The position numbers were made by a program, and so were the translations under genes. The notes under the pieces were generated by a model, which was not told the DNA's origin, made no database searches, and saw only the letters and a list, made by a program, of their open reading frames with translations. Shown here piece by piece: positions 24,443 through 58,060 of a stretch of 64,000 nucleotides of DNA; within the stretch, counting starts at the first letter, position 1; the number at the start of each line of letters is the position of its first letter. This stretch comes from Bacteroidia bacterium. GTDB lineage: Bacteria; Bacteroidota; Bacteroidia; UKL13-3. The stretch spans positions 53,871 to 117,870 of the forward strand of contig JBAYTR010000005.1 of NCBI GenBank assembly GCA_041675505.1. The letters are read 5' to 3'.

Positions 24443-25462
24443 TTAAGAATTTGAAACTACAGCAGATTCAATTTTGCGCGGTTGATATTTTGCAGCCATC
24501 TCAGCTATTGCTTTAATGTGATCGGGTGTGGTTCCGCAGCAGCCCCCCAAAACGTTCACTAATCCTTCTTTGCAAAATTCTTCCACTTGCTTGGCCATAG
24601 CAGCGGGACTCTCGTCATATTGCCCCATTTCATTTGGTAAACCGGCATTGGGATATGCACTTACATAATACGGGGAGTTGTTGGCCATTACCTGCAAATA
24701 TGGTCTTAAAGCACTTGCACCTAAAGCACAATTTAATCCTATACTTAGTAAAGGCATATGTTGCATGCTGATAAGAAAGGCTTCTGTAGTTTGTCCGGAT
24801 AGTGTTCTTCCCGATGCATCGGTTATGGTTCCACTCACCATAATAGGAATACGTTTACCTGTTTCTTCAAATAATTCGTCAATAGCATACAATGCTGCTT
24901 TGGCATTTAGAGTGTCAGTGATTGTTTCAATCAGCAGCAGTTCAACTCCACCATCAAGCAAGCCCTTTGCCTGTTCTTTGAAAGCTACTACTAATTGGTC
25001 GAAAGTAACGGCTCTATATCCGGGGTTGTTTACATCTGGTGACATTGATGTAAGTTTTGTTGTTGGACCCATTGATCCCGCAACATATTTGGGCTTGTGG
25101 GGTTCCTTAGCTGTAAATGCATCTGCCACTTCGCGAGCAATTTTTGCTGATTGGTAGTTAATCTCATATACCAAAAAACCAAGTTCGTAATCTGCCTGCG
25201 CAATACTTGTGCTACCAAAAGTATTGGTTTCAATAATGTCTGCTCCGGCTTCCAGGTATTGTTGGTGAATGGCTTTTATAACATCAGGTCGCGTGATAGA
25301 TAATAAGTCGTTGTTCCCTTTGAGGGATAGTGGGTGATTCTTTAACTGTTCGTTTCTGAAATCATCTTCTTCCAAATGATACCGCTGAATCATGGTTCCC
25401 ATAGCGCCATCCAGTATAAGGATACGTTTTTGAATAATGTCTTTTATATTGGGTTTTGTCAT
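24443..25462 (-). CDS. metH: Homocysteine S-methyltransferase domain protein (N-terminal polypeptide of the split MetH)
   Basis: The 339-aa protein has '[10 protein letters not shown]', 'DIIETNTFG' and a C-terminal '[11 protein letters not shown]' zinc/Hcy-binding motif. Confidence 0.85.
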
Positions 25463-25520: not shown

Positions 25521-25632
25521 TGCTCATCTGTATACGAAACAGTAATTTCGTATTAGGAGTTGGCACCCGTCACTTGCCGGGTTGCCAAGACTTCACAGGG
25601 CCTATTCCCTCTGTCTTTCTTGATAAGCGTGG
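25521..25632 (-). promoter_or_regulatory. SAM-I riboswitch in the 5' leader of the split metH operon
   Basis: The reverse complement reads 'CGCUUAUCAAGAAAGACAGAGGGAAUAGGCCCUGUGAAGUCUUGGCAACCCGGCAAGUGACGGGUGCCAACUCC...ACAGAUGAGCAG'. This matches the SAM-I consensus (P1 'CUUAUC'/'GAUGAG', 'AGAGGGA', 'GGCCC', 'GGCAACC', 'GGUGCCAA..CC'). Confidence 0.85.
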
Positions 25633-28883: not shown

Positions 28884-30023
28884 GTGAAATTAGCAGTACT
28901 CAAAGAAACACGGGCCAATGAGCCGCGTGTGGCACTTACACCCTCAGTGGTGCAAAGTTTTGTAAAGGCCGGATTTGAAGTTACGGTAGAGTCGGAAGCG
29001 GGCATGGCCTCTTCTTATTCTGATGAGGCTTATGTTAAGGCAGGAGCAAAAATAGCTTCTTCAGTAGCTGATTTGTACAACAATGCACAAGTGGTTATTA
29101 AAATGAGCCCCCCTCAGGAAAATGAGGTGCAGCAATTGCCACAGGGATGTTCACTGATATCGCTGATTTATGGAAGCATGAACGCGGCATTGGTGCAACA
29201 GCTTAACCAAAAACAAATATCAGTATTTGCTATGGACGCCATTCCGCGTATTTCGCGTGCACAAAATATGGATGCCTTAAGCTCACAAAGTAATCTGGCG
29301 GGTTATAAAGCGGTGTTGCTGGGTGCAAACCACATGCAGAAAATATTTCCGTTGATGATGACGGCTGCCGGAACTATAACCCCCTCTCGTGTGCTCATAT
29401 TTGGTGCAGGTGTGGCCGGATTACAAGCTGTAGCTACCGCGAAACGTTTGGGTGCCATTGTGGAGGTAACTGATGTTCGTCCGGAGACAAAGGAACAGGT
29501 GGAATCATTAGGTGGTAAATTTATTGAAGTAAAATCTGATGACGCTGTTAAAGTAGAAGGCGGATACGCCAAGGAAGTTTCTGCTGAATATTTACAGAAA
29601 CAAAAAGAAGCCGTGAACAAATCATTGTTTCAGGCCGATCTTGTTATCACAACAGCCTTGGTAATGGGCAAAAAAGCTCCTGTACTCATTACGGAAGAAC
29701 AGGTAAAACAAATGAAACTGGGCGCAGTAATAGTAGATATGGCCATTGAACAAGGCGGTAACTGCGAACTGAGTGAATTGAATAAAAATGTTAACAAATA
29801 CGGTGTAAACATTATCGGTCAGGCTAATTTGCCCGGTACACTTTCAAACAATGCCAGTGAGCTGTACGCAAAAAACGTGTACAACCTGCTTATGCATTTG
29901 GCTACAAAAGACGGTTTTAAATGGGAGCTGGAGGAAGAGATTACCAAAGGTACACTTATCGCACACAAAGGTGAAATCCTGAACCCCATGATTAAGCAAG
30001 CATTATCACAACCCTCAAACTAA
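28884..30023 (+). CDS. pntA: NAD(P) transhydrogenase subunit alpha, part 1 (PntAA). Probable GTG start, giving 'VKLAVLKETRANEPRVALTP'
   Basis: AlaDH/PNT N-domain. The 'GAGVAGLQA' Rossmann motif is present. The ORF has no in-frame ATG near the conserved N-terminus. Confidence 0.85.
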   Translation: MKLAVLKETRANEPRVALTPSVVQSFVKAGFEVTVESEAGMASSYSDEAYVKAGAKIASSVADLYNNAQVVIKMSPPQENEVQQLPQGCSLISLIYGSMNAALVQQLNQKQISVFAMDAIPRISRAQNMDALSSQSNLAGYKAVLLGANHMQKIFPLMMTAAGTITPSRVLIFGAGVAGLQAVATAKRLGAIVEVTDVRPETKEQVESLGGKFIEVKSDDAVKVEGGYAKEVSAEYLQKQKEAVNKSLFQADLVITTALVMGKKAPVLITEEQVKQMKLGAVIVDMAIEQGGNCELSELNKNVNKYGVNIIGQANLPGTLSNNASELYAKNVYNLLMHLATKDGFKWELEEEITKGTLIAHKGEILNPMIKQALSQPSN

Positions 30024-30032
30024 ATACAGCAC

Positions 30033-30338
30033 ATGGAAACAATACTTAATTTTATTACAGATAACCTGCAATTAATCTACCTCATTATACTCATGATTTT
30101 TGTAGGTGTAGAAATTATATCTCACGTACCTTCTGTTTTACATACGCCTTTAATGAGCGGTGCTAATGCTATTCACGGTGTGGTAATTATCGGTTCCATT
30201 ATTGTTATGGGGCAGGCACATCAAACTGTTTCCCTTGTACTGGGCTTTCTGGCTGTTGTACTCGGAACACTTAACGTTGTGGGTGGTTTTGTGGTAACCG
30301 ACCGCATGCTCGAAATGTTCAAGAAAAAGAAAAAGTAA
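30033..30338 (+). CDS. NAD(P) transhydrogenase subunit alpha, part 2 (PntAB, membrane)
   Basis: The 101-aa protein has three TM helices and 'GANAIHGVVIIGSII', typical of PntAB. Confidence 0.8.
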   Translation: METILNFITDNLQLIYLIILMIFVGVEIISHVPSVLHTPLMSGANAIHGVVIIGSIIVMGQAHQTVSLVLGFLAVVLGTLNVVGGFVVTDRMLEMFKKKKK

Positions 30339-30358
30339 TAAAGGAATTTCGAATGCTC

Positions 30359-30786
30359 AATTTCTAATGGTTAATAGTGTAAATATTTTGAATGTAATGT
30401 CTGAAGGTAAGATATACGATTTGGAGGAACGCACTTTCATATTTGCTAAAAGAGTTAGAGACTTTGTTCGATTATTGCCATTAACGATTTCCAACAAAGA
30501 AGATATTCGTCAGTTAATTAGATCATCAGGCTCAATCGGTGCAAATTATATAGAGGCTAATGAGAACCTAGGAGAAAAAGATAAAAAGATGCGCATACGT
30601 ATTTCAAGAAAGGAAGCTAAGGAGACTAGATACTGGCTTAATTTAATTGAAACGAAAGATGTTAAGGAACTTGAGGAAGAAAGAAGAAGATTGGCCACTG
30701 AGGCTGAAGAATTGATGCTAATATTTGGGACTATAATTAAACGTTTAAATTAACAATTCGAGATTCGGAATTAACAATTAGAAATT
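30359..30786 (+). mobile_element. Mini-insertion carrying a 'four-helix-bundle protein' gene, bounded by 17-bp imperfect inverted repeats. Left repeat 'aatttctaatggttaat' at 30359-30375; right repeat 'attaacaattagaaatt' at 30770-30786
   Basis: The two repeat arms agree at 16 of 17 positions when one is reverse-complemented. The element expands the pntAB-pntB junction, which is normally a few bp, to about 450 bp. Confidence 0.5.
30397..30753 (+). CDS. Four-helix-bundle protein (TIGR02436-like, '23S rRNA intervening-sequence protein' family)
   Basis: The 118-aa protein has 'YDLEERTFIFAKRVRDF', 'IRQLIRSSGSIGANYIEANE' and 'KDKKMRIRISRKEAKETRYWLNL', which are family hallmarks. Confidence 0.8.
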   Translation: MSEGKIYDLEERTFIFAKRVRDFVRLLPLTISNKEDIRQLIRSSGSIGANYIEANENLGEKDKKMRIRISRKEAKETRYWLNLIETKDVKELEEERRRLATEAEELMLIFGTIIKRLN

Positions 30787-30794
30787 AAAACAAC

Positions 30795-32210
30795 ATGCAA
30801 CAACACATACTACAACTCATATATCTGATAGGCTCAGTAACTTTCATTCTCGGATTAAAGTATCTGGGTAATGCTGCTACAGCCCGAAAAGGTAACCTTA
30901 TTGCAGCATTTGGTATGGCCATCTCCATTTTCGGAACTATCTTTTTGTATACAGATAAAGATGGCAATCACCTGGGTAATCTGGGTTTAATTTTTGGCGG
31001 TCTGATTGTAGGAACCATAATAGGTTGGATGGCCGCTAAAAAAGTACAGATGACAGCTATGCCGGAGATGGTGAGTTTGTTTAACGGAATGGGTGGTGCC
31101 TGCGCTATGCTTATTTCGGTTATTGAATTTCAACACCTCACCTCACCTGAGCACACAGGACCTCTTGCCAGTGGTATGTTACTTACCATCATTACCGGAT
31201 TGATTATCGGCTCGGTTTCTTTCTCCGGAAGTATAATTGCCTGGGGCAAACTCAGCGGTAAGGTGAAAGACAAATCATTCCCTTTTCAGCAATACATCAG
31301 CATAGGTTTAATGCTGGTGATTTTGTTTTTCGCCTATCAGGTGATTGCATTAAAATCAGACAATTTTCAAACTGAACTTTACATTGTACTGGCACTTTCT
31401 CTGGTGTACGGTATCTTATTCGTACTGCCAATTGGTGGTGCTGATATGCCTGTGGTTATCTCGTTGCTCAATTCTTTTACTGGTGTGGCCGCAGCTTGCG
31501 GAGGTTTCCTTTACGATAACAAGGTGATGCTGGTAGGAGGTATACTGGTTGGTTCAGCAGGAACACTGCTCACCATTGTGATGTGTAAAGCCATGAATCG
31601 CTCCCTGTTGAATGTGTTAATAGGTAATTTTGGTGGTGGTGCTTCAGGCGCTGTTGCCACTTCATCAACAATAGTGGGTTCCATTAAAGAAGTGAAGGCC
31701 TCTGATGCAGCTATACTAATGAAATATGCCAAGAAAGTAATTATTGTTCCGGGTTACGGATTGGCTGTAGCACAAGCACAGCACGTGGTGCATGAACTGG
31801 AAGAACTTTTGGAAAGAGAGGGTGTAGAAGTTAAATATGCTATTCATCCCGTTGCCGGTCGTATGCCTGGGCACATGAACGTATTGCTGGCTGAGAGTAA
31901 TGTGAGCTACGATAAATTGGTGGAAATGGAAGAAATCAATCCGGAGTTCAATACCACAGATGTGGTACTGGTAGTAGGAGCGAATGACGTAGTGAACCCA
32001 GCAGCTAAAACAGATCCCGCTTCACCTATTTACGGTATGCCCATACTGGAAGTGGAGAATGCCCAAAATGTGATTGTAAACAAACGTAGCATGAAAGCCG
32101 GTTATGCAGGCATCGAAAACGAGTTGTTCTACCGTCCTAAAACCAGCATGTTATTTGGTGATGCGAAAAAAGCACTAACTGAGTTGGTGAACGAAATAAA
32201 ATCCCTTTAA
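30795..32210 (+). CDS. pntB: NAD(P) transhydrogenase subunit beta
   Basis: The 471-aa protein has an N-terminal polytopic membrane domain and a C-terminal dIII domain with 'VPGYGLAVAQAQH' and 'GANDVVNPAA'. Confidence 0.9.
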   Translation: MQQHILQLIYLIGSVTFILGLKYLGNAATARKGNLIAAFGMAISIFGTIFLYTDKDGNHLGNLGLIFGGLIVGTIIGWMAAKKVQMTAMPEMVSLFNGMGGACAMLISVIEFQHLTSPEHTGPLASGMLLTIITGLIIGSVSFSGSIIAWGKLSGKVKDKSFPFQQYISIGLMLVILFFAYQVIALKSDNFQTELYIVLALSLVYGILFVLPIGGADMPVVISLLNSFTGVAAACGGFLYDNKVMLVGGILVGSAGTLLTIVMCKAMNRSLLNVLIGNFGGGASGAVATSSTIVGSIKEVKASDAAILMKYAKKVIIVPGYGLAVAQAQHVVHELEELLEREGVEVKYAIHPVAGRMPGHMNVLLAESNVSYDKLVEMEEINPEFNTTDVVLVVGANDVVNPAAKTDPASPIYGMPILEVENAQNVIVNKRSMKAGYAGIENELFYRPKTSMLFGDAKKALTELVNEIKSL

Positions 32211-47699: not shown

Positions 47700-48140
47700 G
47701 GCGAAATTACAACTTTTGCGCTTCGCTTAATTTTGAATTTTTAATGCTTAATTCTTAATGGGGTGCTTTTGGGTGTTTAAGTGGGTAAGTGTTTAGGTGT
47801 TTATGGGCAGGCTTTATTTAAGCCACAGATTTCACAGATAAGAAAATTAATCAGTGTAATCAGTGGCAGAAACGCTTTGCTTAATTTTGAATTACCCTTC
47901 TTCCGTTAAATGTGATATAATCTGCGTGAATCTGAGGAATCAGTGGCAGTCCTGTGCTTCGCTTAATTTTGAATTTTTAATGAAATGTCTTCCACTAAAT
48001 GTGATTTAATCTGCGTTAATCTGCGAACCGTAAGCTCAGCGAAGCTAAATTAGCGGCAAGAAACGCTTCGCTTAATGTTTAATGAGGGCTTCTGGTAAAT
48101 GTGATATAATTTGTGAAATCAGTGTTAATCAGTGGCAGTT
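47700..48140. repeat. Four degenerate tandem units (~80-110 bp each). Each begins '(aa)acgctt(c/t)gcttaatt(t)tgaat...', contains 'taaatgtgat(a/t)taat(c/t)tg', and ends 'aatcagtggcag'
   Basis: Visible by eye. Unit boundaries are roughly 47720-47869, 47870-47949, 47950-48057 and 48058-48139. Confidence 0.7.
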
Positions 48141-48162
48141 TATCGGTAGTGTGAACAGAACC

Positions 48163-57704: not shown

Positions 57705-57869
57705 GTGTGCTTACAGTGGGATAAAATTACTTCTACGGGCTTACAATTGCATCATCAGTTGGCAGGTAAATTTCAACGCGTTAAACAGCAACTGTTTGTA
57801 TTTTTTGTTTGGAGAAAAATAAAACTCTCCCTTTCTTCGCATCCGTTACTCGGTTCTTAGTTCATATAA

Positions 57870-58060
57870 TTTGAACAAAAGATTAATAGGGAATCAGGTG
57901 TAAATCCTGAACAGTTCCCGCTGCTGTAAGTTTCTGCAACGCAAGTTGCAACCTGTTGCCAGCCTTTACGTCACTGTTCACCTTTGGTGGATGGGAAGAC
58001 CGGACAACTGGGGAAATGAGTCAGAAGACCTGCCGCAATAACACAAGTGCATGTAGCTTT
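57870..58060 (+). promoter_or_regulatory. Cobalamin (AdoCbl) riboswitch
   Basis: 'AATAGGGAATCAGGTGTAAATCCTGAACAGTTCCCGCTGCTGTAAG', then 'CACTG..GGGAAG', then the B12 box 'AGTCAGAAGACCTGCC'. It lies about 110 nt upstream of the TonB-dependent receptor. Confidence 0.9.

Follow-up and report, generated by a model that had tools for sequence, protein, structure and literature searches.

The pnt operon and its four-helix-bundle gene

A stretch of 64,000 nucleotides (nt) of contig JBAYTR010000005.1 from a Bacteroidia bacterium (assembly GCA_041675505.1, positions 53,871 to 117,870; hereafter, the window) contains a transhydrogenase operon in which a gene for a four-helix-bundle (4HB) protein of 118 amino acids (aa) lies between pntAB and pntB, bracketed by two inverted arrays of 7-nt units (Table 1). 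The protein is related to those encoded by open reading frames (ORFs) within the intervening sequences (IVSs) of 23S rRNA, and the unit as a whole is probably an IVS-type gene cassette, in which the 4HB ORF and its flanking inverted heptamer arrays occupy, in the sense orientation, the spacer of a protein-coding operon. The order and common strand of pntAA, pntAB, the 4HB gene and pntB are as given in a first-pass annotation, which was made from the sequence of the window alone. Its premise that pntAB and pntB are normally contiguous was confirmed by a survey of 80 species-representative loci of ~6 kb, in which the spacer is ≤114 nt long in 70 of the 79 loci that have both genes. Homologous loci or contigs used for comparison are labeled L###, and homologous 4HB proteins are labeled P####; L002 (contig k141_2445153 of ERZ27247358) is identical in sequence to the window. 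The right arm of the cassette overlaps the stop codon of the 4HB gene, and the fraction of G+C (GC) is 0.32 in the cassette compared with 0.43 in the pnt genes.

Table 1. Genes, arms and indel unit at the pnt locus of the window
Feature	Positions	Strand	Basis
pntAA (transhydrogenase alpha subunit, dI domain)	28884–30023	+	PF05222 and PF01262 (AlaDh_PNT_N/C); NF006942, 409 bits; 379-aa gene call in the identical contig L002
pntAB (four-transmembrane part of the alpha subunit)	30033–30338 (stop TAA, 30336–30338)	+	PF12769 (PNTB_4TM), 113 bits
4HB gene (S23p / IVS-protein / Avd-like), 118 aa	30397–30753	+	PF05635 and TIGR02436, above cut-offs
pntB (transhydrogenase beta subunit)	30795–32210	+	PF02233 (PNTB), 599.8 bits
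Indel unit (filled alleles only; ~42 unrelated nt instead in L012/L015)	30339–30778	+	Alignment of filled and empty alleles; gap columns 30339–30773; right edge uncertain by ~8 nt
Left arm, ~5 heptamer units (GGAATTT CGAATGC TCAATTT CTAATGG TTAATAG), including the 17-mer 30359–30375	30343–30379	+	Direct repeat D2; inverted repeats I1–I4
Right arm, ~6 heptamer-like units (AATTAAC AATTCGAG ATTCGG AATTAAC AATTAGA AATTAAA), including the 17-mer 30770–30786	30748–30789	+	Direct repeat D1; inverted repeats I1–I4

The 118-aa product scores 45.6 bits against PF05635 (cut-off, 33.8) and 68.1 bits against TIGR02436 (cut-off, 24), and an alignment profile of the 4HB family matches PDB entry 2RLD with an E-value of 1.6e-14. 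An AlphaFold2 monomer model (predicted local distance difference test score, 90.9) consists of four helices (9–26, 34–56, 60–83 and 90–117), and its best matches in a Foldseek search are 2RLD (template modeling (TM) score, 0.75–0.81), the IVS-type protein 2GSC of Xanthomonas, and 4DWL, the Avd protein of a diversity-generating retroelement (DGR); the Avd structures 4DWL and 8UBE superpose on the model with TM scores of 0.70–0.75, although sequence identity is only 13–14%. The earlier assignment of the product to the four-helix-bundle proteins of the 23S-IVS family is thus upheld by both the profile scores and the structural matches. The PDB entry 2RLD contains five chains, a pentameric state is cited for 2GSC (PMC4990558), and Avd has been described as resembling the Pfam family PF05635 (PMC10053308). 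At least 7989 related proteins were returned by one search.

The ATG at position 30397 is backed as the start codon by the conserved N-terminus of the homologues, and an alternative 128-aa ORF from 30367 would begin inside the left arm. A one-base insertion (TAATGAAAGG vs. TAATAAAGG) is present in L014 (6303–6310, corresponding to window positions 30336–30342) and also in L001 and L016–L018; it creates an ATG that overlaps the pntAB stop codon, so that gene callers give a 138-aa 4HB product running through the left arm. This call is probably an annotation artefact, and the overlapping ATG could allow translational coupling.

The arms had initially been described as an inverted repeat matching at 16 of 17 positions. 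This repeat is genuine and non-random: the 17-mers at 30359–30375 and 30770–30786 are complementary at 16 of 17 positions, and their inverted-repeat score was reached in none of 2000 trials in which the two short spacers were shuffled. The 17-mers are the best-matching portion of longer arrays with a 7-nt period, for which the lag-7 autocorrelation is 0.52 in the left arm and 0.67 in the right arm, and complementarity between the arms over 31 nt is 71%. These arms are degenerate in comparison with the perfect arms of 28–43 bp found in apparently young copies elsewhere in the family. The arm motif occurs nine times in the window, compared with 1.3 expected occurrences, and four of the nine are at the cassette ends; outside the cassette it is matched only loosely, by repeats of an unrelated region at 47.7 kb, and no further exact copy of the 17-mer is present in the window. 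That repeat region (47700–48160) comprises ~460 nt of non-coding sequence between two minus-strand ORFs and holds three to five copies of several units (GCTTCGCTTAATTTTGAATTTTTAATG, CTTCCNNTAAATGTGATATAATCTG and AATCAGTGGCAG) at irregular spacings of 80–180 nt, of which the AATTTTGAAT/TTAAT portion loosely resembles the left arm of the cassette.

The arm sequences are well conserved. The left arm carries no substitution relative to L001 and L014 and is conserved in L019, while in the right-arm region 55 of 66 alignment columns do not vary among the window, L003, L001, L014 and L019; in total, 99 nt of non-coding cassette DNA are free of substitutions between the window and L001 or L014. Even in L019, in which synonymous divergence (dS) is saturated, both arms are still recognizable and largely conserved. 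L003 carries substitutions at 30348/30349 and 30762; these do not compensate for one another in the register of minimum free energy, but the repeated units permit several registers. The outermost 5–8 nt of the right arm (TAGAAATT) are also present, with one mismatch, in alleles that lack the cassette (TAAAAATT), and these nucleotides may therefore be native.

Architecture and movement of the cassette family

A metagenome scan with an alignment of 22 sequences yielded 80 further loci (55–66% identity), 79 of which have both flanks. In each of these 79, the 150 nt preceding the ATG were compared with the 150 nt following the stop codon, and the best inverted repeat between the two was scored. 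The mean score is 17.7, compared with 7.5 in shuffled sequences, and 67 of the 79 loci score 12 or higher, with arm pairs that are perfect over 31–43 bp in several cases (L110, L022 and L156). In the layout of nearly all members of the family, A/C-rich heptamers upstream end 4–20 nt before the ATG, and complementary T/G-rich heptamers downstream begin ~30 nt past the stop codon; the family-wide autocorrelation of the arms is 0.42 at lag 7 and 0.385 at lag 14. The sequence AAATCCGA is present upstream of the gene in 49 of the 80 loci, and 41 have its complement downstream. The typical unit is of the AAATCCG type, and the arms are AT-rich even in hosts with a GC content of 60–67%. The match is better between the two arms of one locus than between arms of different loci (Wilcoxon p = 2.7e-4), and variant unit types, such as CTAAATC, track a 4HB clade. 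The suggestion that the arms should recur at other copies of the gene thus holds for arms of the same kind, which flank nearly every homologue (~80 loci), but not for the exact 17-mer within the window.

The cassettes are packed tightly between genes; the gene upstream has the same direction in 61 of 70 loci, and 40 of 53 loci have co-directional genes on both sides. The settings in which the same subfamily (55–70% identity) is found include a conjugation operon, polysaccharide loci and sites adjacent to ABC transporter genes or to the gene for RNase III. A plasmid collection gave only six distant matches (<60% identity) and was uninformative. Near-identical cassettes in unrelated contexts indicate that the family is mobile. 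L114 and L144, both of which have polysaccharide-synthesis genes, share a cassette with 91.8% identity between flanks that are unrelated at the nucleotide level, and the two limits of the homology are exactly the outer ends of the left arm (AAAYCCGAAACCC...) and the right arm (...TTTCGGATTTAT). In L184 and L185, a 430-nt cassette is common to both loci (97.7% identity), whereas the 2.4 kb upstream of it is unrelated, with an AMMECR1 gene in one locus and an unrelated ORF in the other; only the left boundary is readable in this pair, and L185 stops at a contig end. The ORFs of L115 and L123 are 98% identical, whereas their flanks are only 73–82% identical. The first-pass description of a traveling cassette is therefore supported for the family, by both edges in L114/L144 and by the left edge in L184/L185, but not as a recent arrival of the copy in the window.

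Several of the sampled loci have additional features. Two 4HB genes (119 and 133 aa) in L188 (1688–2902) are interleaved with PrgI-like, TraC-like and TraG-like ATPase genes, the TraG-like ATPase carrying an intein/LAGLIDADG domain, and 4HB cassettes are thus also carried by a conjugative element. L114 contains two different 4HB cassettes in tandem (1893–2994) downstream of a gene for a Wzz/GNVR chain-length determinant, and its second ORF scores 111.6 bits against PF05635. The cassette of L022 (3429–4127), which has a perfect stem of 28–31 bp, adjoins rnc, which encodes RNase III and lies on the opposite strand; this proximity is probably a coincidence. On the high-GC contig L110, a GC-rich and near-perfect hairpin of ~150 nt (633–787; CCCCTCCCCCCAACCCCCTCCCC... 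/ ...GGGGAGGGGGTTGGGGGGAGGGG) is microRNA-like in Rfam only at scores under the gathering thresholds and has no relation to the cassette arms.

Alleles, age and alternative explanations

Contigs from related populations, diverged by 2–8% at the nucleotide level, were retrieved by look-up of the exact PntAB protein. Identical PntAB is encoded by contigs with and without the cassette, most of them with it. In two of these contigs (L012 and L015), the spacer between pntAB and pntB is only 57 nt long and contains no 4HB gene, inverted repeat or 7-nt periodicity; an empty site, for which a search in relatives had been proposed, is thus present within the species complex, and the relatives without the gene do not retain the long spacer and its repeats. 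Filled and empty alleles can be aligned as far as the pntAB stop codon, and their similarity resumes ~16–19 nt before the pntB ATG; the boundary between them lies ≤8 nt from the arm ends in the window. In comparisons with L001 and L014, dS is 0.07–0.10 in the cassette and 0.28–0.41 in the adjacent pntB, i.e., three to four times lower in the cassette. Likewise, the empty alleles of L012 and L015 are identical, although their flanks differ by 5–6% and each groups with a different filled haplotype. Filled and empty alleles alike thus postdate the backgrounds on which they lie, as expected if recombination has shuffled them among the lineages of the complex.

A search for the source of the 42 nt found only in the empty allele gave a single match, in which 20 of 21 nt are the reverse complement of a segment of the pntAB coding sequence in other species (E = 0.002). 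The matching part of L012 (6317–6337, spacer nt 11–31; TCACTTCAATTCCAACAAAAA) corresponds to a conserved segment of pntAB (20 of 21 in L056) and has no such match to the pntAB of its own species, and it may represent either chance or the footprint of a rearrangement.

The copy in the window is an old, vertically inherited and selectively maintained resident of this junction, with decayed arms. The nearest 4HB homologue outside the complex (P0006 in L019; 78% identity) also lies between pntAB and pntB, in a host that differs by 23% at the nucleotide level and yet has the same deacetylase-pntAA-pntAB-4HB-pntB-DUF2911 order. Further orthologues in the same junction were identified in L039 (66%), in L192 and L193–L198 (P0013 and P0024, respectively; 62–63%) and in L030 (60%), and the HDAC-pntAA-pntAB-4HB-pntB order is found in L193–L195 as well as in L019. 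These orthologues cluster in the 4HB tree, and their hosts form one clade of the PntB tree, apart from L030, which is unplaced (its pntB is truncated); the same clade also includes the species L029, L035, L036 and L028, in which the junction is empty. Within the species complex, the 4HB gene shows no nonsynonymous differences and five to seven synonymous differences, and the ratio of nonsynonymous to synonymous divergence (dN/dS) between L192 and L193 is 0.063. The absence of nonsynonymous changes, together with the conservation of the arms where dS is saturated, shows purifying selection on both the protein and the arms, which is strong for the gene; “selfish,” as the cassette had been described, is therefore insufficient as its sole description. 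These comparisons place the arrival of the cassette in the pntAB-pntB spacer before the divergence of several species, and it has been inherited there since.

Several observations weigh against an IVS-type cassette. No target-site duplication was found at any boundary examined (the window, L114, L144, L184 and L185), and the filled allele differs from the empty one by ~440 nt in place of ~42 unrelated nt, which is a replacement and not the clean insertion bounded by terminal inverted repeats (TIRs) that had been envisaged. The outgroup spacers are too diverged to be aligned and gave no polarity of gain or loss within the complex. The cassette is not accompanied by a transposase, recombinase or reverse transcriptase, and it is the only 4HB copy in the window, in which no other was detected by tblastn, a subfamily hidden Markov model or two divergent 4HB queries. 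At the RNA level, the window cassette folds no better than shuffled sequences (z = +0.3), with a long-range helix of only 11 bp, and the mismatches of 77 arm pairs in the family include 79 G.U and 89 A.C; with no excess of G.U, they give no sign that pairing in the sense RNA is selected beyond the complementarity of the DNA.

Other data bear on expression and RNA processing. A terminator-like site was found neither in the cassette nor between pntAB and pntB, and a promoter site of the Bacteroidetes type (TTTG...TAnnTTTG) was not found in the cassette, where the only promoter-like site is a weak 9-of-12 match of the sigma-70 type across the right arm (30750–30778); such sites are fewer in the region than in shuffled sequences. 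The cassette thus probably lacks its own promoter and terminator and would be co-transcribed with the pnt genes, and pairing of the arms in the transcript would close the ORF within a long stem. A stem of ~29 bp closing the ORF is predicted for the transcript of the pnt-junction cassette in L192 (z = -3.1), and a long ORF-closing stem is also predicted for L022 (z = -5.6). These predicted stems and the plan shared with the IVS of Coxiella suggest that canonical copies are co-transcribed and that their stem may be a substrate of RNase III, by analogy with rRNA IVSs, whereas processing of the window copy is doubtful because its arms have decayed. An Rfam search of eight canonical loci gave no family that fits the arms or the cassette.

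It is conceivable, albeit unlikely, that the element acts at the RNA level only, its arrays serving the transcript in RNase III processing, mRNA stabilization or translational control, and that it has spread by ordinary recombination or horizontal transfer instead of a dedicated mobility system acting on the arms. The long stems predicted in canonical copies, the demonstrated cleavage of the equivalent Coxiella stem by RNase III, the placement of the left arm just upstream of the start codon and the shuffling of alleles among backgrounds within the species complex all accord with such a role. It fits poorly with the exact termination of homology at the outer arm ends between unrelated contexts, which resembles the termini of an element, with the lack of a G.U bias over A.C, and with the conservation of the arm sequence itself, beyond its complementarity, across phyla and GC contents.

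It is improbable that a selfish mini-element with 17-bp TIRs has newly jumped into this genome and that the empty alleles represent the unoccupied ancestral site. Such an event would account for the empty alleles among close relatives, for the GC content of the cassette being lower than that of its flanks, and for the low dS, which makes the cassette allele younger than its flanks; it would also suit a family that is mobile at other loci. However, the two empty alleles, identical on divergent backgrounds, are “young” in the same sense, ~42 nt of the empty spacer are unmatched in the filled one, a target-site duplication is lacking, and the arms have only 71% complementarity over 31 nt. The fresh insertion proposed in the first-pass annotation was not borne out, and a recent de novo insertion is largely refuted by the orthologues in L019, L039, L192 and L193; orthologous cassettes with 60–78% protein identity share the junction in several other species and cluster together.

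The junction itself has been occupied repeatedly. In the survey of pnt loci, the exceptions with a long spacer include 4HB cassettes in L030, L039 and L041 and a frame-broken 4HB gene in L078, and the junction of L031 contains a 4HB gene of a different subfamily. When the window 4HB protein was used as a tblastn query, it matched the junction in four of the 80 loci and nowhere else in them, L031 being too divergent, and 4HB genes were not detected at other junctions of the same 80 loci. Since L041 and L078 belong to separate Chitinophagaceae clades amid empty junctions, there have been at least three independent occupations. All cassettes of the pnt junction are in the sense orientation. The copy in L078 (3309–3820; Chitinophagaceae bacterium PMP191F), in which an 82-aa C-terminal ORF is left and arm-like repeats persist, is a decaying one.

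A further alternative is a domesticated operon gene, i.e., a 4HB protein that serves the transhydrogenase as an accessory (e.g., an assembly or regulatory factor) and whose repeats are relics: the gene has long been retained in exactly this junction, always in sense, its protein is under strong purifying selection, and the junction is enriched for 4HB genes (the four matched loci and the divergent L031). This too has a low probability, because the same subfamily occurs in many unrelated contexts and ~90% of the surveyed pnt operons, including members of the same species complex, do without the gene. Moreover, the junction has also received another subfamily (L031), cassettes in independent lineages (L041 and L078) and hairpins without an ORF (L088, L089 and L102), and the arms are conserved and hence are not relics. 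Finally, a chance similarity in short, AT-rich spacers, with arms devoid of biological meaning, would agree with the poor RNA fold in the window but is refuted by the recurrence of the architecture in 67 of 79 independent loci, in line with the absence of comparable scores in 2000 shuffles, the excess of the motif in the window and the conservation of the arms in L019, and can be set aside as extremely improbable.

Other repeats and insertions were observed at or near this junction. The hairpins without an ORF consist of 7-nt units (L088, 2516–2671; L089, 3309–3409; L102, 3309–3382; e.g., AATTGGGAAATTGGGAAA / TTTCCCAATTTCCCAATT), and in L046 (3309–3575) units of the GAACGCGAATGAACACGAATA type are repeated in tandem over the 265 nt of the pntAB-pntB spacer; these repeats may be ORF-deleted derivatives of the cassette or a related class of repeat. 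In another species, an insert of ~780 nt separates pntB from a DUF4159 gene in L193 (4409–5222) and L198 (3027–3850), whereas the spacer at this position is 19 nt long in L194, L195 and L197. The insert contains a 185-aa gene on the minus strand with a weak PF05635 match and a local hairpin of short units of the TTAGGAC type, and it is a second presence/absence polymorphism next to the pnt operon.

Relation to known elements and implications

The ORF-bearing IVSs in the 23S rRNA of Leptospira, Coxiella, Xanthomonas and Brucella encode S23p/PF05635 proteins and are sited in helix 25 or helix 45. The 428-nt IVS of Coxiella has an S23p ORF, an inverted-repeat stem that is cut in its middle by RNase III, and three tandem heptamers (GACAGAT ×3) directly upstream of the ATG, and an early idea held that the IVS ORF encodes a component of mobility (PMC4990558). 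The cassettes described here agree with 23S IVSs in their protein family, size (~430–520 nt), sense ORF, bracketing inverted repeats and heptamers directly upstream of the ATG, which are of the AAT or AAATCCG type here, and also in their sporadic distribution, which has been attributed to horizontal transfer in the case of IVSs. They differ in being located in the spacer of a protein-coding operon instead of helix 25 or 45; in addition, the 4HB ORF of the window is under strong purifying selection, whereas that of Coxiella is reported to be decaying and probably untranslated, and RNase III excision, which has been demonstrated for 23S IVSs, can be proposed here only by analogy, and the arms of this copy are degenerate. 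Since the plan is that of an IVS and the location in 23S rRNA, which defines IVSs, is lacking, the unit is best described as an IVS-type cassette in an mRNA operon.

The Correia/NEMIS elements of Neisseria and the ERIC elements of enterobacteria are co-transcribed miniature inverted-repeat elements whose hairpins are cut by RNase III. The present cassettes resemble them as small, TIR-bounded intergenic units of operons that have no transposase of their own, show presence/absence polymorphism, would form a hairpin in the host transcript, and have ORF-less versions at the same junction (L088, L089 and L102); moreover, the inverted repeats lie at the exact ends of the unit (both ends in L114/L144 and the left end in L184/L185), a trait typical of miniature inverted-repeat transposable elements. 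Unlike Correia/NEMIS and ERIC, however, the cassettes carry a conserved protein gene under selection, their arms are heptamer arrays instead of a single TIR, and no TA or other target duplication was seen.

The fold of the 4HB protein is also that of Avd, which is a nucleic-acid-binding scaffold in the DGR ribonucleoprotein. A DGR was considered and ruled out for the window, in which there is no reverse transcriptase within 6 kb and template or variable repeats are not nearby. The neighbors within 6 kb on either side encode LuxE, a deacetylase, the pnt products, DUF2911, a 2OG-Fe oxygenase, DHFR and ProRS. The only Rfam matches at gathering score in the window are two riboswitches, with no rRNA and nothing on the arms or cassette. 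One is an S-adenosylmethionine (SAM) riboswitch (25521–25629, minus strand; 76.9 bits) upstream of the minus-strand gene 24443–25462, which is a homocysteine S-methyltransferase-domain gene in matching contigs, and the other is a cobalamin riboswitch (57834–58052, plus strand; 86.5 bits).

The arms may also act as terminal recognition sequences for mobilization. The conservation of their sequence across phyla, the coincidence of the homology ends with the arm ends and the lack of any other gene in the unit suggest that the arms are recognized sequence-specifically. The most likely ligand of the heptamer arrays would be the 4HB protein of the cassette itself, which is the only component always present with the arms and whose solved relatives are pentameric nucleic-acid-binding scaffolds. 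A more speculative and rather unlikely extension is that the cassette is a minimal autonomous mobile element of ~0.45–0.5 kb, whose protein binds its own heptamer ends, either as DNA or as RNA released by RNase III, and recruits host enzymes or a reverse transcriptase in trans, by which the element would be moved or copied.

Full-text literature searches returned no description of such cassettes outside rRNA, but their coverage was incomplete, and an earlier description is possible. The annotation “four helix bundle protein” is an extremely common one, and the origin of the ORF-bearing 23S IVSs has been a standing question since their description. The comparisons presented here indicate that the plan of the rRNA IVS, in which heptamer arrays, an ORF and complementary arrays follow one another, is the general form of a cassette family that lies mostly in ordinary operon spacers across phyla, with defined termini, in identical form in unrelated contexts and with both its protein and its arms kept under selection. 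For annotation, the cassette explains unusually long spacers inside conserved operons, and the pntAB-pntB junction can be flagged as a landing site that has been used more than once. The arm sequences, the empty and filled sites, and the canonical and decayed copies provide testable substrates for binding, release by RNase III and movement. If the cassette were indeed a minimal autonomous element, the classical 23S rRNA IVSs would merely be those members of the family that landed in rRNA, which would settle a question dating from the 1990s, namely the nature of IVSs and the role of their ORF.

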